From contig CAZKEV010000002.1 in the NCBI GenBank assembly GCA_964551875.1, positions 16,047-80,046 on the forward strand: a stretch of DNA of 64,000 bases, in the 5' to 3' direction. Made by a program: the position numbers and the translations under genes. Each line of letters begins with the position of its first letter. Position 1 is the first letter of the stretch. Of this stretch, positions 1,878 to 60,723 are shown in pieces. The notes below the pieces were generated by a model that was given only the letters and a program-made list of their open reading frames with translations, was not told the origin of the DNA and searched no databases. The stretch comes from an uncultured Methanomicrobiales archaeon. Its GTDB lineage: Archaea > Halobacteriota > Methanomicrobia > Methanomicrobiales > JACTUA01.

Positions 1878-2345
1878 ATGCCTGGTGTCTCCGAGTTCTT
1901 GGCCCGCCTCACGGACCCGCAATGGGACTCCGTCCTGATGGTCATCCAGGAGCTGCAGGACAGTGCGGCTCCCGAGAGGATGGAAAGCCTCCGGAAGTTC
2001 TTGGTCTCTTTGAACGTGGAGATCGACCAGATCAACCGCAAGCGAGACGTCCTGGGGCAGAAGGCAGACAACATCAAGGCGGTCGTCTTCATGATTGAGG
2101 GATACCTCAAGGGGAACCCCGACCTGGAGGTGGAGCTTCTCAAGAACGTCCTCGTTATGTGGGAGTCCTCCTTGCGGCTGGAGATTGCCGAACTTCGGCC
2201 CTCCGAAAAGCTGGAAAAAAAGTATGATACGGAGAGGAAGCGGAACTTTCTCATCCAGATCCAGGCTCTCGTGTCGAACCTGAACGTGGAGATGAGGCAG
2301 TCGAAGGCAAGTTCTCCGCAAAGCGTTTGCGGAAAGAAGGTCTGA
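1878..2345 (+). CDS. Hypothetical protein (baseplate module, coiled-coil)
   Basis: ATG 1878 after GGGAGG. 155 aa. Stop TGA overlaps the next start (ATGA). Confidence 0.6.
   Translation: MPGVSEFLARLTDPQWDSVLMVIQELQDSAAPERMESLRKFLVSLNVEIDQINRKRDVLGQKADNIKAVVFMIEGYLKGNPDLEVELLKNVLVMWESSLRLEIAELRPSEKLEKKYDTERKRNFLIQIQALVSNLNVEMRQSKASSPQSVCGKKV
2317..2331. repeat. Palindrome CGCAAA-GCG-TTTGCG (copy 1, intragenic)
   Basis: Direct reading. The flanking C/G extend it to a 17-bp palindrome. Confidence 0.9.
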
Positions 2346-2791
2346 TGGTCACGCGGTCGGACATCATCGGGCGGGGCTGGGCCTTCCCCTTCCGATTTTC
2401 CTCCTTGGGACGGGTGGGGAAGATGGTGGGGGTGACCCCATCCGATTCCATCGAGAAGGTCCGCATGGCCATCCGGCAGATCCTCGGGACGAATATCGGG
2501 AGCCGGATGATCGACCGCGAATTCGGATCCGATCTTCGGAACATCCTTTTCTACCCCATCGACGAGCTTTCCGCCTCTCGGGTTCGCCTCGCCACGGTGG
2601 AGGCCATCCAGCGGTGGGAGAAGCGGGTGGAGATTCTGGAATCCGAGGTGTCCATCGAGCGGGCGAAGGATGGTGTCATCGAGGTGGACGTCACCCTTCG
2701 TTTGGTTTCGACCCAGCAGGTTTTCAATCTGGTCTACCCCTACTATTTGACCCCGGAAATGATGGTTGTGGACCAGATCAACGTCATCTGA
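2345..2791 (+). CDS. Baseplate wedge protein, gp25 / gpW family (lysozyme-like fold)
   Basis: IGRGWAFPFRF...IEKVRMAIRQILGTNIGSRMIDREFGSDL...EAIQRWEKRVEI matches the GPW_gp25 signature. The ATG at 2345 overlaps the upstream stop. Confidence 0.8.
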   Translation: MVTRSDIIGRGWAFPFRFSSLGRVGKMVGVTPSDSIEKVRMAIRQILGTNIGSRMIDREFGSDLRNILFYPIDELSASRVRLATVEAIQRWEKRVEILESEVSIERAKDGVIEVDVTLRLVSTQQVFNLVYPYYLTPEMMVVDQINVI

Positions 2792-2804
2792 CGGAGGGGG
2801 CAGC

Positions 2805-4586
2805 ATGGTTGCGAATCCCATTACGCTGACGCGGGTTTCGCAGCGAATCCCGCCGATCGACTACACCAGTCGCGATTTCGAGGCAATTTCTCAAGATCTC
2901 GTGCGGGCGATTCCATTTTTTGCTCCGGAATGGACAGATCACAATTTGTCGGACTTCGGAATCGTTCTTCAGCGGCTCCTGGCGATGATGGGCGACTGCC
3001 TCCACTTCTACATCGACCGGGGGGCCAACGAGGCGTTCCTTCCTACGGCCATCACCCGGCGTTCGGTCATCTACCTCCTCCGGCTCATCAACTTCACCCT
3101 GAACAGCGCGGCCCCGGCATCCGTGGACGTCGTCTTCTCTCTTCAGAATCCCTTGGGCGGAGACCTCGTGATCCCCAAGGGAACTCTTCTCCAGACCACG
3201 GCGGACGCCACGGACAAGCCCGTCTACTTCGAGACCACGGCGGACGCGGTGATCCCAGGGGGGCAACTGGACGTGACGGTCGCGGCGGTGGAGGGACAGA
3301 CCAAGAGCGAGAATGTCGGGATCAGCAGGGGCATTCCGAGACAGCGGTTCACTCTCTCTGGGACTCCGATCATCGACGGAACCCTCGAAATCTGGATCGA
3401 CGAGGGCGTTGGAGATCAGCTCTGGCAGGAGATTGACTCCTTCGCCTACGCCGGATCGGACGACAAGGTGTTCGTTACCAATCGAGACGAGAACAATCTC
3501 GTCACCGTATTCTTCGGTGACAACGCCCAGGGCAAGATTCCTGACCAGGGGGCGATCATCCGGTCGGATTACCGGGTTGGGGGCGGGGCGAATGGGAATG
3601 TGCCGGAGAACACGATTACGGCGATCAACGCGGTCTTCACTTTCAACGGAGCCCCCGTGGGCGTGGCGGTGACGAACCCCAACGCGGCGAGCGGTGGCGA
3701 AGAAGCCATGACCATCGACGAGGCCAAGGTAGCGGGACCGAGGAGCCTCCTGGCCCTGAATCGGGCGGTCACGGCCCAGGACTTCGTCGCCTTGACCGAA
3801 GCCTACCCCGGTGTGGCGAAGGCGTTTGTGGTCGTGGGAGCGACCCCGATGGACCCGTCGAGCGGGTGCTGTTGCCTCGTGCGTCTCACCTTCGCCCCCA
3901 CGGGAGGGGGCTTGCCGTCGAGCCAGCTAAAGGCCGATATTCTGGCCTACTTCGAGACCAGGAAGATGATCGGGACTTGCCTGGAGATTGTGGATCCCGA
4001 GTACCAGCCGGTGGACGGTGCGGGGACGATCTACATGGCGAGCAACTTCTCCACGGAGCAGGGTGCCCTGGATGTTGACCAGTCGATCACCAACTTCTTC
4101 GCGCTTGGGAGTGAGTTCGTAGGATTCGGCCAGTCGCTCTACCTGTCGGATTTCTACCGCCTCCTGGATTCGATCCCGGGGGTCGACCACGCCGACCTCA
4201 CGGAGCTGACCCGGAGGCCCGTTCCCGGGTGCGGGCCGTGGAGCGGGGACTGCGAGCTCAAGAACTTCGTGGTGGGTGCGACGGCGAAGAACGAGGAATG
4301 GACGGTCACCATGACGTCCATCACCACGTTCTCGGTGATCGGGACGGTGAGCGGGATCCAGAACCCCGGAACCGTGGGGGTGAACTACACCACGAACGGC
4401 GGGGAAGTCTCGTTCAAGATCGAATGCGGAGGAGGCCCCGCGCCCGTGGTGGGGGACAGGTGCAAGTTCACGACCAGTCCAAAGGTCGCCAACGTACCCA
4501 TGAAGCCGGTCGAGATCATGACGAGGGGCAACTTCGTGTTCAACTTCATCGGCAGCGCGAGGCCGCAGAGGGTGTGCCCAGTATGA
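2805..4586 (+). CDS. Baseplate J-like protein (P2 gpJ / T4 gp6 family)
   Basis: ATG 2805 after GGAGGGGG. IDYTSRDFEAISQDLVRAIPFFAPEWTDHNLSDFGIVLQRLLAMMGDCLHFYIDRGANEAFLPTA is a typical Baseplate_J N-terminus. Its position after gp25-like is canonical. Confidence 0.85.
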   Translation: MVANPITLTRVSQRIPPIDYTSRDFEAISQDLVRAIPFFAPEWTDHNLSDFGIVLQRLLAMMGDCLHFYIDRGANEAFLPTAITRRSVIYLLRLINFTLNSAAPASVDVVFSLQNPLGGDLVIPKGTLLQTTADATDKPVYFETTADAVIPGGQLDVTVAAVEGQTKSENVGISRGIPRQRFTLSGTPIIDGTLEIWIDEGVGDQLWQEIDSFAYAGSDDKVFVTNRDENNLVTVFFGDNAQGKIPDQGAIIRSDYRVGGGANGNVPENTITAINAVFTFNGAPVGVAVTNPNAASGGEEAMTIDEAKVAGPRSLLALNRAVTAQDFVALTEAYPGVAKAFVVVGATPMDPSSGCCCLVRLTFAPTGGGLPSSQLKADILAYFETRKMIGTCLEIVDPEYQPVDGAGTIYMASNFSTEQGALDVDQSITNFFALGSEFVGFGQSLYLSDFYRLLDSIPGVDHADLTELTRRPVPGCGPWSGDCELKNFVVGATAKNEEWTVTMTSITTFSVIGTVSGIQNPGTVGVNYTTNGGEVSFKIECGGGPAPVVGDRCKFTTSPKVANVPMKPVEIMTRGNFVFNFIGSARPQRVCPV

Positions 4587-4792
4587 GCCAAGATAACATC
4601 GTCAAAAATCAATGCGCCTCGGATCAGCTTGGCTGGAGACTGAACTTGATCGAGGCCAGCGCCCGGGGCATTTTGAGCCACTTCCCCCTCCTGGGGATCG
4701 AGGAGGACGAGGCGAAGAAGTTCCGGGGCTACCTTGACGAGATCGTGAAGGTGGCCAGGGAACGGTTCATGGAAGCGACGGGGGGAAAGTGA
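4583..4792 (+). CDS. Hypothetical small protein
   Basis: 69 aa. ATGA overlap with the J stop and GTGA overlap with the next gene. Normal amino-acid composition. Confidence 0.45.
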   Translation: MSQDNIVKNQCASDQLGWRLNLIEASARGILSHFPLLGIEEDEAKKFRGYLDEIVKVARERFMEATGGK

Positions 4793-7536: not shown

Positions 7537-10533
7537 ATGGCTACCGGAAACTCCCTTTTTCTCTCCCTGAACCAGAACACGGTCTACTCGGACCTCTCCG
7601 TGGACTTCGCAACCGGCATCTTCACCATGGGCGGGGACATTACCATGGCCGGGGCGGACTCCGTCACCTACCTCGCGGACTCCATCAAGGACACGGACAT
7701 CGACTGGGCTCCTGAAGGCGCAGTTCCGGGTGCCGGACAGGTCTCCGGGGTGGATGTGCCGATTCAGGACGTCGGAAACTGGTTCGGAACAGACAACGTG
7801 GAGGCGGCCCTGCAAGAACTCGGGGCGGATGTCGATTCCCTGCAATCCGGCCTCGTCATCAAGGACAACGTCTGGACATCGGTAGGTCCGACCTTCGACG
7901 ACACGGACGGCTTGCGCCAGACCCAGGCGGTCCTCCTCACCGGGAACGTCGCGGCGGGGGAGAAGTTCTACATCGACGACAACGTGGCGTTGACCGAGAC
8001 GTACACGGCGACCGCCGGGGCACCCGGAGCGTTCCAGTTCCAGGTCGGAGCCACGATCAACGCAACGGTGGCAAACCTGGTCGCCTCGATCAACGCCAAC
8101 TCGGCCCTGGCGAAGGCCGAGTATTCGCTGGTGGACGACATCCACGCGACGACCTACCTGATCGGGATCGGGGCGCAGGACTTCCTGACGGGGATCTACA
8201 CGTGGGCTGCGACTGCCGGTGGGGCCGTCTGGACGAACGGCCAGCCCAAGTACAGCAAGGACGGAACCGACATCGCTGCACACTTCACGAACCTGGCGAA
8301 CGTCGATCCGGCGGCCACGAACTTCCAGGCGGGCGTCGCGGCAGCGGGCATCGCAACCGGATGGACTTACGTGGTCAGGGCGGGAGCCCAATCTGCCGCG
8401 TGGCTCACCTACAACCAGACCACCGATCACTGGACCGAGTCCAGCCCGCACCGGACCCCCGGGTTCCAGGCCGGGAAGGGCATCGACATCGACACGAACA
8501 CGTCGCCGTGGACCATCTCGGTGGACATCCTCGACGTCGATTCCACGGGCGGGGCGAACGGAGAAGTGCTCACGGCGGACGGGGCGGGAGGCGTGGACTG
8601 GATAGCTCCTGGCGTTCCTGCCACGCCCACCCTCCAGGAAGCCTACGACGCTTCTTCCCCTCCGACCATCACCCTCGACGCGAGCGGCGATCTCCTCATC
8701 AACCTGAACAGCGCAACGGCTGGCGATGCGTTCAAGGTAGCATCCAGTGCCGGAGGCGCGGACGGCCTCACGCTGACCTCGACCGGGGCGGACGCGATGA
8801 GCATGGTCGCCGACACGACAACCACGGCGCTCAGCTCGTCGAGCACCACGGACATCGACGCGGCGGGAACCATGTCCTTCAACGTCACGGGCGGGAATAT
8901 CCTGAACATTCAGAGCGACGCGGCTGCTGCGAGCGTCAATGTGGGCACGGGTGCGGCGGTCATCGCGCTCAACGCCGGAAGCAGCAACGGCGCGTCTTCC
9001 ACGAGCATCCACTCGGGGACAGGGGGGGCGAACTTCGCCACGGATGCGAACGCGCACACCACGACGGTCGGAAGCGGGAACACCACCTCCACCACCACCC
9101 TCGACTCCGGAACCGGGGGAACGAACATCGGCACGACAGCGAACGCCCACGAGGTCACCATCGGAAGCGCCACGGGAGCATCCGGGATCACGGCGAACAT
9201 GGGAACGGGGGGAGTGGACATCGGGACGAACGCCGTTGCCGGAACCATCACGGTGGGCAACTCCACCGGAGCGACCTCGATCGTCGCGGAAGTCGGGACC
9301 GGGAACCTGGATCTCGGCGTCAATGCGGTCGCGCACGAAGTCCGCATCGGAAGCGCCACGGGTGCCGCTGGTGTCACCGTGAACACGGGCACCGGAGGCA
9401 TCGACATCGGAACGAACGGGGTGGCCGCGACCATCATCATCGGCAACAACACAGGGGCAACCGCCCTGAATCTGGAGACGGGGTCGGGCGGGCTCAACGT
9501 GGATTCCGACGGGAACAGCGCCATGACGTTCGCCGGAACCCTGGACGTCGACACGACGGGGACGGTCAACCTCCAGACGTCGAGCGGAACAGCGAGCCTC
9601 TTCACCGACGCCGTAGCGACGACACTCACGCTCGGCAACGGCACGGGCGCGACCACGGTGACGCTCGACACGGGCACGGGCGGGGTGAACGTCGGAACCA
9701 ACGCGACGGCGCACGAGGTGTCCATCGGTAGCGGGACCGGGGCCTCCGGGGTCACGATGAACACGGGCACAGGCGGGGTCGACATCGCTACCAACGCGGT
9801 GGCTGCGAAGGTCACGATCGGAAACGCCACGGGGGCAACGGAAGTGCAGGTGGACACAGGAAGCGGCGGATTCGATGCGAACGTGGGCGGGGACACCGAC
9901 ATCAACTCCACGGGAACGACCACCATCACGAACGGGACTGGCGACCTCAAGCTGGAGAACAACGCGGCAGGGGCCGGAAGCGACATCATCTTCGAGTTGG
10001 GTGGGTCGGCAGGAGCCGAGAAGGTTCTGTTCAACGATGCCACATCGGCCACGAAAGCCTCGGTGGACTCGGACGGAAACAGCACATTCCTGGGGTCGGT
10101 GACGATCGGGGCTCTCGGGGAGTTCCGCATGACCGACAGAGGCCCCATGACGCTGGTGACGTCCACGAGCGGGTCGATCAAGGGGGAAGGGTGCAAGCTC
10201 ACGGGCAACTTCACGGTGACGAAGACCCCCGGGCAGACCGGCGAGCAGGACAAGGTGAACGGGGTCTTCCTCGCGACCGAGGCCGCAGGGCCGACCTGGA
10301 TGTACCTCTCCGGGTCCATGCCGGAGATCAAGTGGAACGACCTCGCGGCCCCGACGGTCGGGATGCCCTTCGCCCCCGACGGCCTCGGCGGGTTCGTCAA
10401 GTACACCACCTTCGGTACGGCGGGGAAGAAGCTCCAGTATTGCGGGGTCGTCGCCAGCATCGCCGGGTACGTCAACCCCGGAGACCTGGTCTCGGCCTTC
10501 TTCAACCCGGACAACATGGGAACCTTGCTGTAG
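7537..10533 (+). CDS. Tail fibre / adhesin with Gly-Thr-rich beta-helix-like tandem repeats
   Basis: 998 aa with ATG after GAGGAGGA. The central ~300 aa consist of reiterated units such as GTGG(V/I)(D/N)IGTNA-A-EV-IGSATGA-GVT-NT. Confidence 0.7.
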   Translation: MATGNSLFLSLNQNTVYSDLSVDFATGIFTMGGDITMAGADSVTYLADSIKDTDIDWAPEGAVPGAGQVSGVDVPIQDVGNWFGTDNVEAALQELGADVDSLQSGLVIKDNVWTSVGPTFDDTDGLRQTQAVLLTGNVAAGEKFYIDDNVALTETYTATAGAPGAFQFQVGATINATVANLVASINANSALAKAEYSLVDDIHATTYLIGIGAQDFLTGIYTWAATAGGAVWTNGQPKYSKDGTDIAAHFTNLANVDPAATNFQAGVAAAGIATGWTYVVRAGAQSAAWLTYNQTTDHWTESSPHRTPGFQAGKGIDIDTNTSPWTISVDILDVDSTGGANGEVLTADGAGGVDWIAPGVPATPTLQEAYDASSPPTITLDASGDLLINLNSATAGDAFKVASSAGGADGLTLTSTGADAMSMVADTTTTALSSSSTTDIDAAGTMSFNVTGGNILNIQSDAAAASVNVGTGAAVIALNAGSSNGASSTSIHSGTGGANFATDANAHTTTVGSGNTTSTTTLDSGTGGTNIGTTANAHEVTIGSATGASGITANMGTGGVDIGTNAVAGTITVGNSTGATSIVAEVGTGNLDLGVNAVAHEVRIGSATGAAGVTVNTGTGGIDIGTNGVAATIIIGNNTGATALNLETGSGGLNVDSDGNSAMTFAGTLDVDTTGTVNLQTSSGTASLFTDAVATTLTLGNGTGATTVTLDTGTGGVNVGTNATAHEVSIGSGTGASGVTMNTGTGGVDIATNAVAAKVTIGNATGATEVQVDTGSGGFDANVGGDTDINSTGTTTITNGTGDLKLENNAAGAGSDIIFELGGSAGAEKVLFNDATSATKASVDSDGNSTFLGSVTIGALGEFRMTDRGPMTLVTSTSGSIKGEGCKLTGNFTVTKTPGQTGEQDKVNGVFLATEAAGPTWMYLSGSMPEIKWNDLAAPTVGMPFAPDGLGGFVKYTTFGTAGKKLQYCGVVASIAGYVNPGDLVSAFFNPDNMGTLL
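9010..9890 (+). repeat. Coding tandem repeats (about 19-20 aa units, often paired as ~40 aa) inside the 998-aa fibre
   Basis: Translated repeats are visible from HSGTGGANFATDANAHTTTVGSGNTTS to DTGSGGFDANVGG. Repeat boundaries are approximate. Confidence 0.6.
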
Positions 10534-10553
10534 TCGAGAACGGTTCAGAGGCC

Positions 10554-10580
10554 GGGGGCTCGGTGAGCCCCCCTTTCGGA
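10554..10580 (+). terminator. Hairpin after the 998-aa fibre gene (weak terminator or RNA stability element)
   Basis: GGGGGCTC-GGT-GAGCCCCC forms an 8-bp perfect stem, followed only by CCTTTCGG. Confidence 0.35.
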
Positions 10581-10590
10581 GGACGGGTGA

Positions 10591-11133
10591 ATGTCCAAGC
10601 ACACGAAGATGGGAAGGGCGGCGGTGCCGCCGCCGCAGTCCAGGGGCGTGGGTCCGAGGCTCCTTCCTCCGGGGACGGTCTCTCCGGGGACGGTGCGCCA
10701 GGAGCTCGGGGACGTGGATGCGCTCAAGTACCGCCTCGCGATCCAGAAGGACAACAATCTCAAGGAGAAGCTGAAGTACATCGAGGGGCAGAAGGCCCTT
10801 CTCGCCAAGGACGAGGAGAACATCAAGCTGCGGATCGAACTCGTCCGCATGGAGAACCGCAGGGACATCGGGCACCTGGACATCCAACAGGGCGACAGCC
10901 TGGCCGAGGAGAACGGGAAGTTCTACATCATCCGGGCTCCGAGGCAGGGTCCGATCCCTCAGATCAAGACGCCTCCTCTCAAGGCGGGACCGGACAAGCC
11001 GAAGCCCCCGGCGGAGCCTCCTGCGGAGGTGCCCCCGGCGAATCCCGAGGGGGAGGAGGAAGAGGGGGAAGAGGACGAGGAGGAGGGGGCCACGGAGGGG
11101 AACGGAGCGGAAGCCTCCCCGGAGAAAGAGTGA
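10591..11133 (+). CDS. Hypothetical protein with coiled-coil centre and Pro-rich, highly acidic C-terminus (possible fibre assembly factor)
   Basis: 180 aa with ATG after GGAGGACGGG. C-terminus is PEGEEEEGEEDEEEG. Confidence 0.5.
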   Translation: MSKHTKMGRAAVPPPQSRGVGPRLLPPGTVSPGTVRQELGDVDALKYRLAIQKDNNLKEKLKYIEGQKALLAKDEENIKLRIELVRMENRRDIGHLDIQQGDSLAEENGKFYIIRAPRQGPIPQIKTPPLKAGPDKPKPPAEPPAEVPPANPEGEEEEGEEDEEEGATEGNGAEASPEKE

Positions 11134-11145
11134 ACGCGGCAACCA

Positions 11146-11194
11146 GACCGGCGGGCGTTCTCCATTCGGGGGGACGCCCCCGGTCTTTTCATTT
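11146..11194 (+). terminator. Rho-independent terminator
   Basis: GACCGGCGGGCGT ... ACGCCCCCGGTC gives a 12-bp stem with one bulge, followed by TTTTCATTT. Confidence 0.6.
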
Positions 11195-11206
11195 CAGGGG
11201 TGACCT

Positions 11207-12874
11207 ATGGGCGTCGCCCTAATCAACAATGCGCTCGAAGTCGAGGGGAACAATTCAGGAAACAGGTTCGCGGGCACGGAGTATTTCACCAGCCTTGACG
11301 CTTCCACCAGCGTGACGGTCGGGACTCTCGTCGTCACCAACACCAGGATCAATCCGGGGGTCCAGGGCACACTCGACATCGGCACGACGACGAAGCCCGC
11401 CGCTGGCATCAACGGGAACGACATCACCATCACATCCCAGCCGGGTAGCGACTACAGCGGAGGGCTCGGCCCTGGGCTCGGGGGGGACTCCACCCTGAAG
11501 GGCGGGACGGGCGGGCTCGGGGACGCCATCATCGTCCCGAGCGCCGACGGGGGCGACGTCTACGTCGAGGGGGGACCAGCGGGGGCGAACCTCGGCGGAG
11601 GGGTGGGGGCAGATGGAAATATCAACCTCGGGCTGAACGACACCTCGGCGATCATCATCGGCTCCATCCACATGCTCTGGAACGTGGATGGGGGTGGGAA
11701 CATCGGGTACGACGGATCCACAAACTACAGGCCCGACCGTATCCGAGCGAAGACCTCGGTCTCGGCGGGCGATTCCATTACCCTGAAGGGGGACCGCCTT
11801 TCCGTGTCGGGAGGGACGGGAGACCCCGGCACCCTGGTCGCTGGCGACCTCTGGTACAGGACGGACCTCGGGAAGTTCAAGTTCCGCAACGCCACAACCG
11901 CCGTGGAGCTGCTGGACGCCTCGACGGCAATCGCCAACCCCGGCACGAAGGCAAACAATGACATCCTCCAGTACAAGTCCGGCACGACGACGTGGGACGC
12001 GGTCGGAGGGGCGTCGGGCGACCCCGTCCTCGGTACGCTCTACACATCGGCCCTCACGATCGTCGGGACTACCAATACTGCCCCCCTCTTGTGGAATTCA
12101 GATAATCAGAATGACATCGGGGCGAGCGGGGCAACGAGGCCGAGGACGATCTACGCCGGAACGTCGATCTACCAGGGGTCGAACCAAGTCCTTGACGCTG
12201 GAACGGCCCACGCCGGAGACGTCACCGGGACCAACGGGGCGACCGTGGTCGCCAGGATTCAGGGGGACGCGGTCTCCACGACGAACCCTTCCAACAATCA
12301 GGGGCTCGTGTGGACCGGGAGCGAGTATGCCCCCAAGAGCCATGCGTGGTTCCCGGTCGCCTCGCAGGCGGTGAACGCGACATCCGTCACTGTCGACTCT
12401 CTGGCGGGTGGAACCCACTACGCCTACGAGATCATCCTCCACGGATACTGGGCTGCTACTGGCTCCCAGAAGTACGTCTACCTGACCCCTCGCACCTCGG
12501 GCGGCGACCAGACGGGGAACCAGTATTCGCACAGGCACTATGCCGGGGTGGAGCCTGGTGTCGGATCTGTCCACTCGATCACCAGCATCGCGAGTCGGCT
12601 CATCCTGCACATGAACGACTGGAACCACTCGCAGGACATCTTCGTCCACGCCCACTTCTTCGCGGCGACCGGGACTTACAACAGGCGCTTGATCTCCCAT
12701 ACTGTGAAGGAAGAGGCCGGGAAGACTGGTGCTGGGGAGCAGGGTAAGTTCCTGGAGGCCATGTACCACGGCGTGTGGCGGGATACGAGCAGCGCGATCA
12801 CCGGCCTGAAGATCGACTTCAACGGGGCGACCTTTGTTGGCTACTTGCAGATCAACGCGCTGAGGATCGCGTAG
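11207..12874 (+). CDS. Putative tail fibre / receptor-binding protein
   Basis: 555 aa. Gly-rich N-terminal part. GDLWYRTDLGKFKFRN is the kind of motif seen in fibre shafts. Located in the fibre module. Confidence 0.55.
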   Translation: MGVALINNALEVEGNNSGNRFAGTEYFTSLDASTSVTVGTLVVTNTRINPGVQGTLDIGTTTKPAAGINGNDITITSQPGSDYSGGLGPGLGGDSTLKGGTGGLGDAIIVPSADGGDVYVEGGPAGANLGGGVGADGNINLGLNDTSAIIIGSIHMLWNVDGGGNIGYDGSTNYRPDRIRAKTSVSAGDSITLKGDRLSVSGGTGDPGTLVAGDLWYRTDLGKFKFRNATTAVELLDASTAIANPGTKANNDILQYKSGTTTWDAVGGASGDPVLGTLYTSALTIVGTTNTAPLLWNSDNQNDIGASGATRPRTIYAGTSIYQGSNQVLDAGTAHAGDVTGTNGATVVARIQGDAVSTTNPSNNQGLVWTGSEYAPKSHAWFPVASQAVNATSVTVDSLAGGTHYAYEIILHGYWAATGSQKYVYLTPRTSGGDQTGNQYSHRHYAGVEPGVGSVHSITSIASRLILHMNDWNHSQDIFVHAHFFAATGTYNRRLISHTVKEEAGKTGAGEQGKFLEAMYHGVWRDTSSAITGLKIDFNGATFVGYLQINALRIA

Positions 12875-12883: not shown

Positions 12884-13045
12884 ATGGCTGAGAGCGACCA
12901 GACCATGCTCCTCCCGTTCAAGATCGTCTTCTCGGAGACGGACCCCACGGCGGTCCTCTACATCCTGTTCAAGGACACGACCAACGGCAAGAAGTACAAT
13001 CTCCAGGTGACGAACGGGGCCGTCGAGGTTGTCGAGGTGGTGTAG
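12884..13045 (+). CDS. Small hypothetical protein (53 aa, below the ORF-track cut-off)
   Basis: ATG 12884 after TAGGAGA. MAESDQTMLLPFKIVFSETDPTAVLYILFKDTTNGKKYNLQVTNGAVEVVEVV. It fills the gap between two fibre genes. Confidence 0.35.
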   Translation: MAESDQTMLLPFKIVFSETDPTAVLYILFKDTTNGKKYNLQVTNGAVEVVEVV

Positions 13046-13046
13046 G

Positions 13047-13661
13047 GTGGGAGAGCCGAACCCCAAGCTGAAGCCCGTCGAGGAGAGGGTCGCAGAGATC
13101 CTCATGGGGCCTCCAAAGGATGTCTACGACGCCGCCAAGAACGTGAAGGGCCGGTGGAGGGACGTCGTCACCCGAAGGATGCCCGACGGGACAGAGGAGG
13201 TGGTCGAGGACACGGGGTGGAAGAGCAACATGATCGTCCAGGGGATGCCCAAGCTCCTGGCTGGTCTGATGCGAAACGAGTCGACGTACATCGGGGGGAT
13301 TCTCCAACACGCGATCGGCAATGGAAATCCAGCCTGGGATATTCCGGGACCCCCGACCCCGGCGTACAACTCGACACAGCTCGTGGCGGAGTACTTCCGC
13401 AAGCCTCCGACCTCGATTTCCTACCTGGATCCCCTGGGGCTTCCTTCCCCCGTCATCACGGGGTCCATCCTCATCCAGACGGTGTTCGATTACGGCGAGG
13501 CCAACGGGATGGCCGGGGAGTACATCCGGGAGCAGGGCCTTTTCGGCGGCACGGCGACTGGGGTGGGCAACTCTGGTATCATGGCGAATCTGATTTACCA
13601 CGTTGCCAAGTGGAAAGACAGCAACGTCAAGATCACAAGGTACATCAACATCATCTTTTGA
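13047..13661 (+). CDS. Hypothetical structural protein
   Basis: ORF 13029-13661. GTG 13047 is the first start after the upstream stop at 13045; TTG 13029 is the alternative. About 204 aa with non-biased composition. Confidence 0.5.
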   Translation: MGEPNPKLKPVEERVAEILMGPPKDVYDAAKNVKGRWRDVVTRRMPDGTEEVVEDTGWKSNMIVQGMPKLLAGLMRNESTYIGGILQHAIGNGNPAWDIPGPPTPAYNSTQLVAEYFRKPPTSISYLDPLGLPSPVITGSILIQTVFDYGEANGMAGEYIREQGLFGGTATGVGNSGIMANLIYHVAKWKDSNVKITRYINIIF

Positions 13662-13662: not shown

Positions 13663-13677
13663 CGCAAACGCTTTGCG
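13663..13677. repeat. Palindrome CGCAAA-CGC-TTTGCG (copy 2, intergenic)
   Basis: Begins 2 nt after the stop at 13661. Followed by AAAAGCC and the next gene's start region. Confidence 0.9.
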
Positions 13678-22816: not shown

Positions 22817-22847
22817 CAAGCGCTACACGTACATCCGATAAGGGAGT

Positions 22848-22876
22848 GGGCGGAGGACGGTCTCCGCCCATTTTCC
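22848..22876 (+). terminator. Rho-independent terminator
   Basis: GGGCGGAG-GACGGT-CTCCGCCC forms an 8-bp perfect stem, followed by ATTTTCC. Confidence 0.55.
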
Positions 22877-39511: not shown

Positions 39512-40783
39512 ATGAAAATCGGAAGCATCGAGGACCTCAATCCAGCGCCCTACAACCCGAGGCGGATCGACCAGGAATCCTTGTCGGGCTTGCAGGTCAG
39601 CATCCGGGAACTCGGCGACGTCAGCTGCATCTGTTTCAACGAGAGGACGAAGCAGATGTTTGCGGGACACCAGCGGGTGAAGGCCCTCAAGGCGGAGTTC
39701 GGATCCGACCTCAAGATTGTCGGGGACGAGGCGACGGGCTTTTCCATCCTCACCCCGAAGGGGGACCGCTTCCCCATCCGGGTCGTGGACTGGCCGGAGG
39801 ACAAGGAGCGGCTGGCGAACCTCACGGCCAACAACCACTTCATCCAGGGGGTGTGGACCGAAACCGCCGAGGACGTTCTTGGGCAGGCCGACAACGACTT
39901 CCCGGAATTGTGTGAGCAGCTCCGTCTCAACGACCTGGACCTTGAACTTCTCATTGCGAAGGGGAAGAAGGATCACGTCGGCAAGGGCAAGGACGCGGAG
40001 CCCGACCTCGACGCCGGGGAGGAGCTGAGGAAGAAGTGGGGGGTGGAGCTGGGGCAGATTTGGGAGATGGGAGATCACCGGATCCTCTGCGGAGACTGCC
40101 TCGACAAGGCCCTGGTGGATAATTTTATGGCGGGGGAGATGGCTCACATGAGCTTCACCGATCCCCCCTACGGGGTGGATTACGGAGGACACAACCACCC
40201 ATTGTGGTCTCACAAACACGCCCCAATCCAGAACGACGCCCTGCCCGCCGACCAGATGGCCGCTTTCTGGGAAGCCGCCTTCAACATGGTGGCGGACTAC
40301 GTCTCGAACGACCTCTACGTGACGGCCCCCGGAGGCCCCCTGAACAACACCATGGCCGCCGCCATCTCCAGGACCCCGTTCGAGCATCACCAGTGGCTCA
40401 TTTGGGTGAAGGACCGGCTCGTCCTCGGGCGGTCGAATTACCACTACCGGCACGAGCACATTTGGTACGGCTGGAAGAAGGGGAAGACATCTTCCTGGCA
40501 GGGATCCACGACCGAGGACAGCGTCTGGGAAATCAAGCGCCCCAGTCGATCGGATGACCACCCGACCATGAAACCGGTGGAGCTCGTTCAGAAGGCCCTG
40601 GCCAACAGCAGCATGAAGGGCGACACCGTGTTCGAGCCCTTCAGCGGCTCGGGGACAACCATCGTGGCCTGCGAGAACATGGAGAGGAAGTGCTTGGCCA
40701 TCGAAGTCGTTCCGGCCTACGTCGCCGTCGCGCTTCAGCGGTGGTCGGACGCTTTCCAGAAAACTCCGAAAAAGTTGTCGTAG
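39512..40783 (+). CDS. ParB-like nuclease domain fused to an N6-adenine/N4-cytosine DNA methyltransferase (beta class)
   Basis: N-terminus IEDLNPAPYNPRRI (ParB box). HRILCGDCLD, FTDPPYGVDY (DPPY) and VFEPFSGSGTTIVAC (FxGxG). Start is ATG 39512 or GTG 39488. Confidence 0.85.
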   Translation: MKIGSIEDLNPAPYNPRRIDQESLSGLQVSIRELGDVSCICFNERTKQMFAGHQRVKALKAEFGSDLKIVGDEATGFSILTPKGDRFPIRVVDWPEDKERLANLTANNHFIQGVWTETAEDVLGQADNDFPELCEQLRLNDLDLELLIAKGKKDHVGKGKDAEPDLDAGEELRKKWGVELGQIWEMGDHRILCGDCLDKALVDNFMAGEMAHMSFTDPPYGVDYGGHNHPLWSHKHAPIQNDALPADQMAAFWEAAFNMVADYVSNDLYVTAPGGPLNNTMAAAISRTPFEHHQWLIWVKDRLVLGRSNYHYRHEHIWYGWKKGKTSSWQGSTTEDSVWEIKRPSRSDDHPTMKPVELVQKALANSSMKGDTVFEPFSGSGTTIVACENMERKCLAIEVVPAYVAVALQRWSDAFQKTPKKLS

Positions 40784-41287: not shown

Positions 41288-41372
41288 CAGGCAAGACGCC
41301 GAGTGACCGGCGAGACGCGGTGAAGAAGCCCCAGAGGTGAACGGGGCATGCTCGGGTGGAAAGGATCGAACG

Positions 41373-51076: not shown

Positions 51077-51153
51077 GGGCGTGTAGCTCAGCTGGTTAGA
51101 GCGCTTGCCTGATAAGCAAGAGGTCGGCGGTTCGAGTCCGCCTTCGCCCACCA
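51077..51153 (+). tRNA. tRNA-Ile (anticodon GAU), CCA encoded
   Basis: Hand-folded cloverleaf: GGGCGTG/TA/GCTC-AGCTGGTTA-GAGC/G/CTTGC-CTGATAA-GCAAG/AGGTC/GGCGG-TTCGAGT-CCGCC/TTCGCCC/A/CCA. Confidence 0.85.
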
Positions 51154-51285
51154 GGGAGAGGAAGTGGGTGCCCCTGGTGCCTCCACCCCGCATCCCGGCG
51201 ATACGCGATCGACCGTGGGTGAGCAGAAAAATCAGGCGGCGAGGCTGGTAACAGCTCCGTCGAGGGCTTGGGTGGCCTCTCTTTG

Positions 51286-51361
51286 GCGGGAGTAGCTCAG
51301 TTGGTAGAGCGCGATCTTTCCAAGCTCGATGTCGTGGGTTCGACTCCCATCTCCCGTTCCA
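51286..51361 (+). tRNA. tRNA-Gly (anticodon UCC), CCA encoded
   Basis: GCGGGAG/TA/GCTC-AGTTGGTA-GAGC/G/CGATC-TTTCCAA-GCTCG/ATGTC/GTGGG-TTCGACT-CCCAT/CTCCCGT/T/CCA. One mismatch in the anticodon stem. Confidence 0.8.
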
Positions 51362-51425
51362 CTGGGAGGAGATGCTGCCGGGCAACGTGATGGTTCGCCA
51401 TCCCGGCCCGGAGAGCGCCTCCCGC

Positions 51426-51500
51426 GCCACCCTGGCTCAACGGTAGAGCGACGCTTTCGTAAAGCGTAGGTTGTCGGTTCGATTCCGGCGGGTGGCTCCA
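51426..51500 (+). tRNA. tRNA-Thr (anticodon CGU), CCA encoded
   Basis: GCCACCC/TG/GCTC-AACGGTA-GAGC/G/ACGCT-TTCGTAA-AGCGT/AGGTT/GTCGG-TTCGATT-CCGGC/GGGTGGC/T/CCA. Confidence 0.85.
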
Positions 51501-51572
51501 GCCGCCTTAGCTCAAAGGCAGAGCGACGGTTTTGTAAACCGTAGGTTGTCGGTTCAAGTCCGACAGGTGGCT
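51501..51572 (+). tRNA. tRNA-Thr (anticodon UGU), no encoded CCA
   Basis: GCCGCCT/TA/GCTC-AAAGGCA-GAGC/G/ACGGT-TTTGTAA-ACCGT/AGGTT/GTCGG-TTCAAGT-CCGAC/AGGTGGC/T. Starts immediately after the previous tRNA's CCA. Confidence 0.85.
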
Positions 51573-51581
51573 TCAAAGTGT

Positions 51582-51657
51582 GGCGGGGTAGTTCAGCTGG
51601 TAGAATGCCGGGCTCATAACCCGGAGATCGCGAGTTCGAGTCTCGCCCCCGCTCCCA
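51582..51657 (+). tRNA. tRNA-Met (anticodon CAU), initiator-like anticodon stem, CCA encoded
   Basis: GGCGGGG/TA/GTTC-AGCTGGTA-GAAT/G/CCGGG-CTCATAA-CCCGG/AGATC/GCGAG-TTCGAGT-CTCGC/CCCCGCT/C/CCA. Three consecutive G:C pairs next to the anticodon loop and a weak 1:72 pair (G:U) resemble initiator tRNA. An elongator or lysidine-modified Ile2 tRNA cannot be excluded. Confidence 0.8.
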
Positions 51658-51658
51658 C

Positions 51659-53827
51659 ATGCCCAAGACTGACAAGAAGATCAAGGCCGAGGCGCGGCTC
51701 TACAACCTGTTCCGGGGGGCTCAGGAGGGCCTTACGGACCAGGAGAAGACGATCCTGTCGACGTTGGAAAGCATCCAGGGGGTGAAGACGGCGGCGGATG
51801 CCCCCAAGGGGAATGGCGTGAAGAGAGCGGACCTCGATGCAGCGGTGGCCGCGCTCAAGGGGACGGATACCTTCGCTCTTGACCTTGAGACCCAGAGCAC
51901 GACGACCGAGCAGGACGACGCGACGAACCCCAGGAAGAACCGGCTCGAAGGGGTGTCTCTCGCGGTGGGGATGAGGCCGAACGAGTCCTGGTGGTTCCCG
52001 TTCATGAACGTGGCCCCCGAGGAAACCTTCTCCCAGGTCCAGGTCTTCCGCGCCCTCGAACCCATCCTCCTCGATCCCACCAAGATCTTCGTCGGGTCTA
52101 ATACCAAGTTTGACCTGGAGTGCTTGCGGGTTCAGGGCATCGAGGTCAAGAACAAGATCGTCGACACGGTCGTTTCCGACTGGCTTCTTGACGAGAACCA
52201 GAAGCGGCACGGCCTGAAGGAGATTGTGGAGAGGGACCTTGGGATCAAGCTGGAGAAGTACGGTTCGGCCAAGGCGGCGCAGGGGGGGATCTCGGACGAA
52301 GGGCGCAAACGGTTTGCGGAATATGCGACCAACGACGCCCGCTACGTCCTCAAGGTGTGGAAGGACCTCCACCTGAAGGAGCTCAGCAAGGATCCCAAGT
52401 GCAAGGACAACCCCAAGATGGTCCCCCGTCTTCTTCGGCTCTTCCACGACGTCGAAATGGAAATCGTTGAGATCCTGGTGGAAGCGGAGTTGACGGGTGT
52501 CCGGATCGACATGGTGTACCTCGACGCCCTGGAAAAGCGCATGACCGATGAGGCAGATCAGGCGAAGCAGGCCGCGATCAAGATCTACGGGCAGGAATTC
52601 GACATCGGGAGCCCCACGGTGGTTTCCGAGATTCTATTCGGCATTCCTTCCGACGAGGCCCTCGCCGAGGTCGTCGCCGACAAGGCAGCCAAGACGGGGA
52701 AGTCGGCAAAGGACATCCTGGTGAAGATGACGGACCGGGGGAACCTTTTCGGAGGCCCCCCGAAGGGTCTTCTTCTTCCCCCGGTCGACATGAAGGGGAT
52801 GCCTCTGTCCCCTGGCAAGAACGGGCTCTACTCGACGGACGACGAGATTCTCGGCAAGTTGAAGGGGGCGCATCCGATCGTCGAGAAGATCCTTGATTAC
52901 CGATGGGCGACCAAGACCATCAACACCTATGTGGATTCGTACAGGGTGCTCATCGAGGATGATGGACGGGTCCATCCCGACTTCAAGCAGGCTGGAACCA
53001 TAGCCTTTAGATTCGCGTGTAAGAAGCCCAATCTCCAGCAGATCCCCAAGGAGAAGGGGCTCGTCAAGCCGATGTTCATTCCTGCCGATGGGCACTCCTT
53101 CGTGTGCGGCGACTTCAACCAGCTCCAGTTTCGTTTGATCGGCCACTTCGCCAAGCGGGTTCTCAAGAAGTCGGTGATCCACGAGGCGTACCTGGCGGGG
53201 AAGGATCTTCACACCAAGACCAAGGATGACATGAAACTCCCTGATCGCACGGCGGCGAAGGTTGTGAATTTCGCTTTTCTCTTCGGGCGCGGGGCGGATT
53301 CCCTTTCCGAGAAGGACAACATCCCCTTCCCCATGGCGAAGGGGTACTACGAGGGGTTTCACAAGAATTATCCCGAGGTCAAGAAGATGGCTACGTGGGC
53401 CAGGCAGTGCATCTGCGATCAGGGGTACATCGAATCCCTGACCGGCAGGCGCAGAAGGTTCATGCAGCACAAGGGGAAGGATCAATTCCTCCGAAGGAAG
53501 AAGGGGGAAAAGGACGACGGCCTGTGGTGGGACGGCTGGAAGGCGTGGAATTCCGTTATCCAGATGGCCGAGTCCGACCTGGTGCGGATTTCCATGAGGA
53601 ACATCTTCAGGGAGATCAAGGAGCGGAGGAAGACCGACCCCCGGTGGAACACGGTCAAGATTTTGATTCAGATCCACGACGAGCTGGTGATCGAGACCCC
53701 GACCGAGATCGTCGAGGAGGTCGCCAAGATGGCAAAGGAGAAGGCGGAGACCGCGCTCACCCTGGAAGTGCCGATTATTTTCGAGATTGGAATCAGTTCC
53801 AAGAACTGGGAAGAAGCCAAGAAATGA
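51659..53827 (+). CDS. polA: Family A DNA polymerase (Pol I-like) with 3'-5' exonuclease domain
   Basis: Exo motifs FALDLETQ, NTKFDLECL and YATNDARY. Polymerase motifs VCGDFNQLQFRL (A), RTAAKVVNFAFLFG (B) and LIQIHDELVIE (C). ATG 51659 lies 2 nt after the tRNA-Met CCA, and codons are GC3-rich from the first codon. Confidence 0.9.
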   Translation: MPKTDKKIKAEARLYNLFRGAQEGLTDQEKTILSTLESIQGVKTAADAPKGNGVKRADLDAAVAALKGTDTFALDLETQSTTTEQDDATNPRKNRLEGVSLAVGMRPNESWWFPFMNVAPEETFSQVQVFRALEPILLDPTKIFVGSNTKFDLECLRVQGIEVKNKIVDTVVSDWLLDENQKRHGLKEIVERDLGIKLEKYGSAKAAQGGISDEGRKRFAEYATNDARYVLKVWKDLHLKELSKDPKCKDNPKMVPRLLRLFHDVEMEIVEILVEAELTGVRIDMVYLDALEKRMTDEADQAKQAAIKIYGQEFDIGSPTVVSEILFGIPSDEALAEVVADKAAKTGKSAKDILVKMTDRGNLFGGPPKGLLLPPVDMKGMPLSPGKNGLYSTDDEILGKLKGAHPIVEKILDYRWATKTINTYVDSYRVLIEDDGRVHPDFKQAGTIAFRFACKKPNLQQIPKEKGLVKPMFIPADGHSFVCGDFNQLQFRLIGHFAKRVLKKSVIHEAYLAGKDLHTKTKDDMKLPDRTAAKVVNFAFLFGRGADSLSEKDNIPFPMAKGYYEGFHKNYPEVKKMATWARQCICDQGYIESLTGRRRRFMQHKGKDQFLRRKKGEKDDGLWWDGWKAWNSVIQMAESDLVRISMRNIFREIKERRKTDPRWNTVKILIQIHDELVIETPTEIVEEVAKMAKEKAETALTLEVPIIFEIGISSKNWEEAKK
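52304..52318. repeat. Palindrome CGCAAA-CGG-TTTGCG (copy 7)
   Basis: Direct reading; inside polA. Confidence 0.9.
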
Positions 53828-55969: not shown

Positions 55970-56440
55970 ATGGGGGATTCTGAGAACAAGGTCGGGGTGT
56001 ACAACCAGATGTACTACGTCACCCACAAGGAGGATCTCAGCAAGAAGCGGGCGAAGCTCTACGCCGAGAACTTGGATTACCGCAAGAAGGCTCGGGAACG
56101 AGCCATGGCGCGGTATCGCCAGGAGCGGGAGAATCGGCCTGGGAAGGCCGGTCGTGGCTACAACATCCCGAAGGTGGTTCCCATCGACGGGGAGGATGTC
56201 CGCGTCCACTGCGTGAAGGAGTTCGCGGATCAAATCGGGCGCAGGGTTCAGACGATTCGTTCCTGGGAGGCCAAGGGGGTCATCCCTCCTCCTACGGTCG
56301 TGGACGATAGGGGCCGCCGGTGGTACAGCGAGAAGCACATGGCCGCCGTGGAAAAGGCCCAGGACAAATTTATCGAGAAGAACGCCGTGAGCCTTGAGGA
56401 TTTCAAGGCGATGGTGGAGAAGGAGTTCGGAAGGAAGTAA
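55970..56440 (+). CDS. MerR/excisionase-type HTH DNA-binding protein
   Basis: VKEFADQIGRRVQTIRSWEAKGVIPPPTVVDDRGRRWYSEKHM resembles a MerR-family HTH. Confidence 0.55.
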   Translation: MGDSENKVGVYNQMYYVTHKEDLSKKRAKLYAENLDYRKKARERAMARYRQERENRPGKAGRGYNIPKVVPIDGEDVRVHCVKEFADQIGRRVQTIRSWEAKGVIPPPTVVDDRGRRWYSEKHMAAVEKAQDKFIEKNAVSLEDFKAMVEKEFGRK

Positions 56441-59674: not shown

Positions 59675-59691
59675 AAAGATGAAATAAGCCC

Positions 59692-59719
59692 TTGACAAAA
59701 AAGCCAAACGGAATATACT
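59692..59719 (+). promoter_or_regulatory. Consensus promoter P10
   Basis: CCCTTGACAAAAAAGCCAAACGGAATATACTGTAGTAGG. Confidence 0.8.
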
Positions 59720-59742
59720 GTAGTAGGAATTGGAGGAGTGGC

Positions 59743-60723
59743 GTGAGTCTCAAGGACGTGATGAACAAGGTGAAGGCGACGGACGCCCCGCCTGTGGCGA
59801 CCTTCGATGTCGGCGCGGCGGTGTGGGCGTACTACGCTTCGCTGAACGAAGCCGTCGATGAGGCAAGGGATGACGGCTATCACCCGTCCCAGATGTACGG
59901 GTTCTGCCCGAGGCAGGAAATCCTTCGGTACTTTTTCCCGAAGCCAGACGCGAACATCATCACGCCCGAGCTCCAGACGGCTTTCGATTGGGGGACGGCG
60001 TGGCACTGGCTTCTTCAGAATCGGGTCTTCGGCCCGATGGGGCACCTCTGGGGGGACTGGAGGTGCAACCGGTGCGGGAAGGTCATGAAGGATACCTTCA
60101 TGCCCCCGCCCGACCTGTTCTGCACCCCGAGCACGGGCATGCGCCCCGACGCCGAGATGGAACACCTCGTCAAGGTGGAGGACGAGATCGCGGCTGGCAA
60201 GCGCCCGAGGCGCGGCGGGTACTGGACGTACATGGAACCGAAGCTCCATTCGCGGGAGTGGAACATCTTCGGGCAGGGGGACGGGATCTTCTACCCGAAG
60301 CCCTGGAGCATGACGGAGAGCGATCCCGTCCTTCTCGAAATCAAGACGAGCAACGACAACGGGTTCCAGCGGCTGTATAAGCCTGACCCGAGGTACGTTT
60401 TTCAGATCAGCCTCTATCTTCGCCTTCTGGAGCTCAAGCGGTGCCTCCTGACCTACTGGTCGAAGGGCGACCCCCAGAAACCCAAGTCGTTCTGGGTGGA
60501 CGAGGACAAGACGGCGTGGAGCGAGACGACTTCGAGGATCATCCTGCATCGCCGATCCTGGCCCGAGAAACGCCTCTGTTCGGGGATTTGCAAGGACGCG
60601 GGTTCGGATCAGGGCAGGTGGTGTGGTTGGTCGCGGGAGTGCTTCCAGAAGGACATCGAGGAACAGGTGGAGAAGGCGCGGAGCGCAAACGCTTTGCGGG
60701 GAGGCCCGACCGATGCCGGATAG
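59743..60723 (+). CDS. Cas4/RecB-like PD-(D/E)xK nuclease with putative Fe-S cysteines
   Basis: GTG 59743 after GGAGGAG. N-terminal FCPRQ. GQGDGIF...LLEIKTS...YVFQISLY (D, ExK, QxxxY). C-terminal CSGIC...WCGWSREC. Confidence 0.7.
   Translation: MSLKDVMNKVKATDAPPVATFDVGAAVWAYYASLNEAVDEARDDGYHPSQMYGFCPRQEILRYFFPKPDANIITPELQTAFDWGTAWHWLLQNRVFGPMGHLWGDWRCNRCGKVMKDTFMPPPDLFCTPSTGMRPDAEMEHLVKVEDEIAAGKRPRRGGYWTYMEPKLHSREWNIFGQGDGIFYPKPWSMTESDPVLLEIKTSNDNGFQRLYKPDPRYVFQISLYLRLLELKRCLLTYWSKGDPQKPKSFWVDEDKTAWSETTSRIILHRRSWPEKRLCSGICKDAGSDQGRWCGWSRECFQKDIEEQVEKARSANALRGGPTDAG
60684..60698. repeat. Palindrome CGCAAA-CGC-TTTGCG (copy 8)
   Basis: Direct reading; near the 3' end of the Cas4-like gene. Confidence 0.9.

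Follow-up and report, generated by a model that had tools for sequence, protein, structure and literature searches.

What is the 15-bp palindrome CGCAAA-N3-TTTGCG that recurs along a 64,000-nucleotide (nt) stretch of contig CAZKEV010000002.1 (assembly GCA_964551875.1, positions 16,047 to 80,046; hereafter the window), and is it read as duplex DNA or as RNA? The source is an uncultured myovirus lineage, a large tailed phage, and every gene of the window lies on the + strand (G+C 0.62). An original prediction, made from the window alone, had recognized the element and proposed that it is either a dispersed site for a DNA-binding protein or an RNA hairpin; both stay the leading explanations, with our own tentative preference being for a stem-loop on the transcribed strand. 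Beyond that prediction, we find that copies recur at intervals of ~10 kb, that those in gene junctions generally adjoin stop codons, that one arm pair (5:11) covaries, and that the element has a fixed orientation.

Copies of the palindrome

The window contains six perfect copies, at 2317–2331 (CGCAAAgcgTTTGCG), 13663–13677 (CGCAAAcgcTTTGCG), 23826–23840 (CGCAAAcggTTTGCG), 42187–42201 (CGCAAAcgcTTTGCG), 52304–52318 (CGCAAAcggTTTGCG) and 60684–60698 (CGCAAAcgcTTTGCG), and two with one mismatch, at 33512–33526 (CGCAGAcggTTTGCG; CGCAGA, with a G.T at pair 5:11) and 35282–35296 (CGCGAAgcgTTTGCG; CGCGAA), all on the + strand and all where they had been reported. Dinucleotide-preserving shuffles give means of 0.00 perfect copies and 0.07 copies with no more than one mismatch, against the 6 and 8 observed, and none of 100 shuffles reached the observed count; the earlier claim that chance is excluded is therefore confirmed. 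This was the sole repeated 6-N-6 palindrome found within the window. A ninth, related copy lies on the + strand at 24720–24734 (CGCACAcggTGTGCG), with C-G at pair 5:11.

Seven of the eight matches originally proposed are retained. The match at 35282 is doubtful, and judging by sequence comparison it is probably not a member of the family: it does not seem to be maintained as a motif, because a close relative (IMGVR_UViG_3300035701_006044; 41.3 kb assembled, ~89% protein identity) differs there, with CGCGAAgcgTTCGCG, within a coding stretch that is 95% identical. The relative's CGCGAAGCGTTCGCG is two mismatches away from the motif, yet is itself a perfect palindrome.

By means of near-identical Logan contigs the genome was extended to 95.8 kb (window-equivalent −8,122 to 87,634), throughout which every called gene is on one strand; contigs as long as 116,336 nt encode proteins identical to its own. 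The extended sequence contains 12 motif copies, at 2317, 13663, 23826, 33512, 42187, 52304, 60684, 64691, 75531, 85320, 85953 and 87563, and the family numbers 13 in this genome when the CGCACA variant at 24720 is included.

Selection at the nucleotide level

Four of the perfect copies fall entirely within called genes, where they are translated in three phases as PQSVCG, PQTLCA, RKRFA and SANALR, in agreement with the original description. When synonymous codons were shuffled within genes, 1957 of 2000 trials yielded no copies and the maximum was one. The coding copies use rare codons (AAA 0.11, TTT 0.13, CAA 0.20, AGA 0.06 and GCA 0.09), as in the copy at 52304, within the family A DNA polymerase gene (51659–53827), which is translated as R-K-R-F-A using AAA and TTT. 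Shuffles and codon usage together uphold the view that the constraint is on the nucleic acid and not on the protein.

The intragenic class as first defined does need qualification, however, in that the copies at 2317 and 60684 are at a switch of reading frame, 13–14 nt before the next ATG; plots of G+C content at third codon positions (GC3) show the coding frame switching exactly at these two copies. The former occupies the last codons of gene 1878–2345, 13 nt before the ATG at 2345 of a gp25-like baseplate gene, and the latter the last codons of a Cas4-like exonuclease gene (ending at 60723), 14 nt before the ATG at 60713. The copy at 42187 is within gene 41337–42791, at the end of a variable linker, and that at 33512 is within gene 33290–33715, a gene with no recognizable domain that is present in the close relative and missing from the related contig L123.

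Conservation in related phages

The close relative has orthologous copies of five of these elements (13663, 23826, 33512, 42187 and 52304), separated by 10150, 8388, 9571 and 10738 nt. All 12 arm bases are the same, although the spacer, the intergenic flanks and the codons on either side have changed; the five spacers are CGG, CCA, CGA, CGC and CGG. The A-to-G variant at 33512 is shared (CGCAGAcgaTTTGCG), the 42187 copy is kept despite indels in the linker upstream of it, and the 52304 copy is unchanged although its flanking codons differ. The statement that the spacer is always G/C is correct for this genome but not for its relatives, among which CCA, CGA and CAG occur.

Conservation at orthologous positions, which the original prediction had left to be checked, extends to other contigs as well. 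At the 13663 junction the close relative has CGCAAAcggTTTGCG, and L123 and L124 have CGCACAcggTGTGCG; L118 (~78% protein identity) has the orthologous 2317 copy, with spacer CGC. The 23826 copy has counterparts in the close relative (there with spacer CCA) and in L133 (91% protein identity), L129 (68%) and L126, whereas in L123, L124, L125 and L132 the stop codon at this junction leads directly into the ribosome-binding site. The 15-mer at 24720 recurs in L123, L124 and L157, and L130 has CGCAGAcggTTTGCG at that junction; indeed, the hairpin following homologs of gene 23855–24718 differs from relative to relative (CGCACA.., CGCAGA.., CCGCCgaaGGCGG and CCGCTgaaGGCGG). Perfect copies at other junctions are seen in L040 (37–70% protein identity), L154 and L282, and further copies occur in relatives of 37–80% protein identity, partly at non-orthologous sites. 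The core is conserved in relatives whose G+C content spans 57–70%. L125, L132 and L153, which lack the motif, were inspected for a different repeated palindrome and none was found.

Pairing and orientation

We aligned 28 sequences of the element, 15 of them from relatives. Of the six arm pairs only 5:11 varies, the other five being invariant. At 5:11, 20 sequences have A-T, five C-G and three G.T, and a relative of 70% G+C adds T-A (CGCATAcggTATGCG, two copies), such that one covarying pair defines lineage-specific variants with AAA, ACA and ATA. In no sequence is pair 5:11 unpaired; all 168 cells of the alignment pair, which was matched by none of 500 shuffles.

The element is not symmetric: its spacer opens with C in 27 of the 28 sequences, yet only ~60% have G as the last spacer base. 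With orthologous loci counted a single time each, 19 are in the forward orientation and one is in reverse (P = 2e-5); with a skewed background allowed for, P is 5e-4, although GCG outnumbers CGC on this strand. All three of the single-arm substitutions are A-to-G changes in the 5′ arm, for which a G.U pair is possible on the + strand only.

Position relative to genes

In this genome and its relatives alike, every copy in a gene junction begins 0–4 nt past a called stop codon. The junction copies of this genome are those at 13663, 23826, 24720, 64691, 75531, 85320 and 85953. The first begins 1 nt past the TGA of gene 13029–13661 and ends 28 nt before the ATG at 13706; the second begins 3 nt past the TAA of the caspase-like gene 22890–23822 and ends 14 nt before the ATG at 23855. 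The shared context that had been claimed for these two copies is thus correct, including the AAAAG that follows each. The variant at 24720 begins 1 nt past the TAG of gene 23855–24718 and ends 13 nt before the ATG at 24748. A junction copy usually abuts a ribosome-binding site of the GAGG type, with 7 to ~83 nt to the next annotated start. In a tally of the 13 family copies of this genome, six were placed 0–4 nt past a called stop, and two further copies sit, as described above for 2317 and 60684, in the last codons of a gene. Stop-adjacent junction copies are found in the close relative and in L123, L124, L129, L130, L133, L040, L157, L279 and L282, and 13 of the 15 aligned sequences from relatives are likewise at gene ends, either next to the stop or in the last codons.

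We note separately that after the TAG preceding copy 75531 the frame stays open for 33 codons into the next ATG (L155:2674-2780; window-equivalent ~75,524–75,630), and read-through would therefore join the two proteins; this may well be chance.

Spacing along the genome

Successive gaps between the 12 copies are 11346, 10163, 9686, 8675, 10117, 8380, 4007, 10840, 9789, 633 and 1610 nt, eight of the 11 falling within 8–11.5 kb (P ~8e-6 against uniform placement). In the window by itself, the coefficient of variation of the gaps is 0.11 for the seven conserved copies (P = 2e-5), and P is 0.009 with all eight matches; inclusion of 35282 interrupts the series. A copy was forecast at 83.9–86.9 kb before the DNA there had been retrieved, and one was found at 85,320; in L282 two copies are 10,194 nt apart. 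The rule failed on the left side, where a copy was forecast 8–11 kb to the left of 2317 but none is present within 10.4 kb in this genome, and where the relative L158 has only a one-mismatch copy, 13.2 kb away. At the right end there is a small cluster (85,320–87,563), the other copies being mostly spread out. The last copy (87563) lies in a repeat-rich non-coding stretch in which the contig ends. The spacing is the least explained feature of the element and suggests a genome-covering role, such as the periodic re-loading of a travelling factor.

This last non-coding stretch (L155:14508-14784; window-equivalent 87,358–87,634) contains CGCGCATGTGCGTACGCGCA repeats and a CT-rich run, and one assembly stops there; it may represent the end of the genome or else a control region. 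As a separate observation, terminator-like hairpins split the structural region into units of ~10 kb.

Functions that do not fit

Several standard roles for a short repeated palindrome were considered and set aside. Eleven strong promoters of sigma70-like type, whose −35 is extended (TTGACAAAA-N-TATAnT), all lie on the + strand of the genome, at 26940, 27380, 28572, 30915, 33918, 47411, ~50130, 54411, 55903 and 59692, and at 72734 beyond the window; no match to the family was found on the − strand. They are limited to the early/replication part of the genome, and none is within ~400 nt of any motif copy; the element is not a promoter. Nor is it an intrinsic terminator, which would have a G+C-rich hairpin with a T run after it: the sequence following the copies is purine-rich. 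Intrinsic-terminator-like hairpins are located at 10533–10591, 11133–11207, 22816–22890 and 32056–32132, two of them with clear T runs; true terminators with T runs are located at 11133–11207, 22816–22890 and elsewhere.

A lambda-like origin lies inside gene 41337–42791, the product of which weakly matches a replication initiation protein (E = 4e-4). It consists of four palindromic iterons of ~24 nt (CCCCCGACAAAAATGTCGGGGG) at 41721–41821, beyond which, within 41721–42010, there is a purine-rich stretch of 50% G+C where the GC3 signal collapses. The motif copy at 42187 is ~365 nt downstream of the iterons, but the repeat of the array is a different one and the motif copies are solitary, and the element is not an origin iteron. 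In the close relative the iterons read GGACAAAAATGTCC, a symmetric compensatory change (CGACA..TGTCG versus GGACA..TGTCC).

The hairpin promoters of N4-type phages have a stem of 5–7 bp and a 3-nt loop, need room for a leader and are used by a virion RNA polymerase. The geometry fits, but several copies end just 9–14 nt before a start codon; in addition, no match to an RNA polymerase family was obtained for the 1997-residue protein of the tail module or other large proteins, and conventional promoters are present. A Chi-like role for the half-site was rejected too, with CGCAAA occurring 10 times and TTTGCG 20 times, mostly inside the palindromes or at unremarkable levels. Searches of Rfam matched no family except tRNAs. 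In bacterial genomes there are at least 120 matches to the motif; those listed occur singly in diverse phyla, and neither arrays nor taxon enrichment nor any prophage was seen among them. A pattern scan of IMG/VR similarly gave scattered single matches among those listed, and yielded the relatives L040, L091 and L118.

Candidate readers

The original prediction named three possible binders, and searches of these and ~45 other proteins against domain and PDB sequence collections revealed no convincing reader. The methyltransferase (39488–40783) is an N6/N4 DNA methyltransferase with a DPPY motif and an N-terminal ParB/Srx-like segment, which contains a GxxRxxA-like motif (AGHQRVKA); its match to ParB_N is below threshold (E = 0.005; 17 bits against a cut-off of 26.3), and no helix-turn-helix (HTH) domain was found in it. 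The MerR-like protein (55970–56440) is a plausible DNA binder, and the small 'HTH' gene corresponds to 81 amino acids in the gene calls of the assemblies, with only a weak AsnC-type match (E = 0.006); nothing connects either to the motif, and their nomination is not sustained. To the right of the window (L139:19383-20363; window-equivalent ~72,779–73,759) there is a type IB topoisomerase gene, encoding the catalytic domain only and lacking the N-terminal domain of the bacterial homologs among the matches listed. It has homologs at 42–80% identity in related contigs, and the 17.8 kb of DNA surrounding a homolog of 66% identity is without a motif copy. The 96 kb examined revealed neither a repressor nor an integrase.

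What the element may do

We favor, at a probability of about 0.37, a + strand stem-loop, most likely in RNA, that is read by a protein conserved in this clade, over a double-stranded operator. The element would then be a conserved and oriented cis-signal on the transcribed (+) strand, presumably acting in mRNA, with an active structure consisting of a 6-bp stem and a 3-nt loop whose first base is C. Action on the + strand is suggested by the orientation, by the wobble variants that pair only on that strand, by the absence of unpaired versions of 5:11, and by the adjacency to stop codons. A sequence-specific protein common to the clade is implied by the invariance of the core across relatives of 37–90% protein identity and 57–70% G+C; the hairpin by itself is too weak to work unaided. 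Placed at the ends of cistrons, between the stop codon and the next ribosome-binding site, the stem-loop would be left unmelted by ribosomes, and over a genome of no less than 116 kb the signal would recur at intervals of some 10 kb. Its likeliest roles would be to mark long polycistronic transcripts for processing or stabilization, or to re-load a factor onto the transcribing complex.

A number of observations weigh against this interpretation. The predicted fold of the 15-mer RNA is weak (−3.8 kcal/mol), and at the polymerase copy the hairpin is outside the predicted minimum-energy fold; three copies lie deep within translated genes. Five of six stem pairs are fixed across deep divergence while the loop varies, a pattern typical of a duplex site read by a dimer; a fixed stem with a variable loop is unusual for protein-RNA recognition. 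The iterons of the origin, which are surely DNA sites, have undergone a symmetric compensatory change, and therefore covariation at 5:11 is not on its own proof of a hairpin. Since all genes are on one strand, orientation relative to transcription is inseparable from orientation relative to replication or packaging. Intergenic gaps are short and closeness to the stop codon is therefore partly forced; one long-gap copy is followed by a possible mini-open reading frame of 18 codons, which weakens the argument from copies that hug the stop codon in long gaps. Lastly, a role in RNA gives no obvious account of the ~10-kb spacing.

The first alternative in the original prediction was a DNA-binding site; as framed here it would be a double-stranded site for a dimeric sequence-specific protein of phage or host origin, with an architectural or genome-covering role (silencing, clamp loading and domain boundaries were considered) rather than promoter-proximal control, an account that we think possible but on the whole doubtful. 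Two 6-bp arms with five of six positions invariant about a variable 3-bp spacer, copies that are almost all perfect with few degenerate ones, and occurrence in coding and non-coding DNA alike are all in keeping with it, as are the even spacing, which is a genome-scale property, and the weak folding energy, which speaks against a stand-alone structure. The lineage-specific symmetric change at 5/11 resembles a switch in specificity, and the origin iterons behave alike; the authors who described a 7-3-7 repeat in Cluster O mycobacteriophages favored dimer binding sites for that element (PMC4351075). A symmetric dimer does not, however, predict an orientation of 19:1 or a spacer C without its mirror G, and it leaves unaccounted for the finding that single-arm variants are all on the side that preserves + strand pairing and that junction copies hug the stop codon; copies are also away from promoters, and no convincing binder was identified, given the sub-threshold ParB_N match and a MerR-like protein that is untied to the motif. 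Orientation and G.T-tolerant variants would fit a hairpin in single-stranded + strand DNA as well as one in RNA, or a strand-specific DNA transaction at the site, be it programmed nicking of the kind seen in T5-like phages, a signal on the lagging-strand template for priming or for loading a helicase, or a swivel site for topoisomerase IB. Even spacing suits a process travelling along DNA, and the phage encodes DnaB, a DnaG-type primase, a family A polymerase, RecA, the Cas4-like exonuclease and topoisomerase IB; but it has a separate lambda-like origin with a different iteron sequence, no nicking enzyme was identified, the 66%-identical topoisomerase relative lies in 17.8 kb free of the motif, and stop-codon adjacency would go unexplained, making such a role decidedly unlikely.

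An intercistronic RNA hairpin that acts passively, lacking a reader of its own and serving as an exonuclease barrier or translational insulator, would explain the position past stop codons and ahead of ribosome-binding sites and the unrelated small hairpins that fill some of the equivalent junctions in relatives; we consider it improbable, as −3.8 kcal/mol is too weak for a barrier, a structural element would covary at many pairs rather than at one with five of six invariant, and the in-gene copies, the cost in rare codons and the spacing are left unexplained. A role as decoy for some host factor is more improbable still, with the element either mimicking the hairpin of a CRISPR repeat and sponging a Cas6-type nuclease, or mimicking an operator and titrating a LacI/PurR-type repressor (the motif is presumably similar to the Escherichia coli PurR box). 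The identical core in relatives of 57–70% G+C and a stem-loop geometry that resembles repeat hairpins are compatible with a decoy, and solitary repeat units that inhibit CRISPR are described in phages (PMC10651486). Conservation nevertheless stops at 15 bases with no repeat handle, the bacterial matches (at least 120) are all single and dispersed over phyla, with no arrays among those listed, and again the spacing is unexplained. Chance or a compositional artefact is effectively refuted, and a functionless selfish mini-palindrome is scarcely credible: sites have been gained and lost between relatives, and the 23826 element looks inserted relative to L123, L124 and L125, but the shuffle controls, the conserved orthologous coding positions, the even spacing with its successful forecast, and the lack of any transposase or target duplication all argue to the contrary.

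Returning to the spacing, the copies could serve as re-loading stations at intervals of ~10 kb, used by a factor that moves over the genome or accompanies the transcribing polymerase and that would keep a one-directional genome of at least 116 kb covered; we regard this as unlikely but worth stating. Candidates for the factor would be a processive antiterminator, a sliding clamp or a ParB-like methyltransferase.

Comparison with known systems

The Cluster O mycobacteriophages (Corndog and its relatives) contain a 17-bp 7-3-7 repeat, 5′-TGTTCGGNNNCCGAACA, at ~34 copies per 70 kb, in intergenic and coding positions, not linked to promoters and of unexplained function (PMC4351075). That repeat was reported without even spacing and with little orientation preference (PMC4351075), in contrast to the even spacing and fixed orientation seen here. 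It is the closest published counterpart of the present element: the two have in common invariant inverted-repeat arms around a variable 3-bp spacer, dispersal over short gaps and genes, a position mostly kept among relatives with gains and losses, and no tie to promoters. They differ in that the sequences are unrelated (TGTTCGG..CCGAACA in Cluster O) and the arms are 6 bp here and 7 bp there, that there are 12 copies per 96 kb here, and that the present element has lineage-specific pair variants; hosts and phage lineages are also unrelated, with no nucleotide or giant-protein match between this genome and any deposited phage.

The KorB operators (OB) of IncP plasmids and ParB-parS systems consist of palindromic sites of 13–16 bp distributed over tens of kilobases and read genome-wide, and a spreading or sliding reader of that kind would make a ~10-kb spacing sensible. 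Such systems are characterized by a protein with a CTP-binding N-domain and an HTH, a palindrome that functions in either orientation, and siting at promoters or centromeres. Here there is only a sub-threshold ParB_N segment fused to a methyltransferase, in which no HTH was found, the sites are off promoters and the element is oriented; the analogy with KorB drawn in the original prediction is not supported.

The stoperators of Cluster A mycobacteriophages (sites for L5 gp71) are asymmetric 13-bp repressor sites of temperate phages that act on elongation and not at promoters. They resemble the present element in being numerous, in short gaps by stop and start codons, and in one orientation relative to transcription, but the latter is a near-palindrome, and neither a repressor nor an integrase was seen in these 96 kb. 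Repetitive extragenic palindromic (REP) sequences, bacterial interspersed mosaic elements (BIME) and the intercistronic hairpins of T4 share with it the arrangement of transcribed palindromes just past stop codons in polycistronic units; those have far greater stability, owe their identity to structure or to the loop, and occur solely in non-coding DNA, whereas the present element combines a fixed stem sequence and a variable loop with an energy of only −3.8 kcal/mol and has some copies within genes. The boxB of lambda nut sites, as used in antitermination, is likewise a 15-nt stem-loop of the transcript, in an untranslated gap after a stop codon, that is read by a phage protein, and the spacing would suit a factor re-loaded again and again along long operons of one direction. 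However, boxB is read through a conserved 5-nt loop and is paired with boxA, and lambdoid phages have two such sites, as against a dozen here, where no N-like protein was identified.

To our knowledge, short palindromes dispersed in this way have been recorded in a small number of phage groups, and no explanation of them has been given. The near-regular ~10-kb spacing, fixed orientation, stop-codon placement and single covarying pair of the present element constrain its mechanism. If the spacing does reflect re-loading of a travelling factor, it would represent a new principle for managing large phage genomes that are transcribed in one direction, and the stations would amount to a periodic genome-wide cis-code of a type that is undescribed for any phage.

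Other features of the genome

Among deposited phages no nucleotide match was found, and the DNA polymerase is no more than 27% identical to any of theirs. The genome encodes baseplate and tail genes, the family A DNA polymerase, DnaB, the DnaG-type primase, a class II ribonucleotide reductase, the methyltransferase and five tRNAs, as well as RecA and the Cas4-like exonuclease. Polymerase homologs in related contigs (P0004, P0007, P0012, P0017 and P0020) are in several cases 1000–1150 residues long, and P0007, P0012 and P0017 carry intein/homing-endonuclease domains (PF14890, PF14528), none of which is present in the polymerase of the window.

The large open reading frame of the tail module (16257–22250; 1997 residues) has no match in Pfam or PHROG, or by tblastn among deposited phages. 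The gene at 22890–23822, whose stop codon precedes the 23826 copy, encodes a caspase-family protein (Peptidase_C14, E = 4e-28) and lies among tail and structural genes; it is found at 58–92% identity in all relatives found. Neighbors of the topoisomerase IB gene include a 3′-phosphoadenosine-5′-phosphosulfate-reductase-like gene, along with genes for an AAA protein and for a protein weakly similar to PI3/PI4 kinases. The protein encoded at 30132–30905, just downstream of a strong promoter, has a pair of topoisomerase-type C4 zinc ribbons (E = 3e-16) together with a weakly matching Ogr/Delta-like zinc finger (E = 0.0015), and may be a regulator of late transcription. The tRNA genes (Ile, Gly, two Thr and Met) form a cluster at 51077–51657, directly upstream of the DNA polymerase gene.

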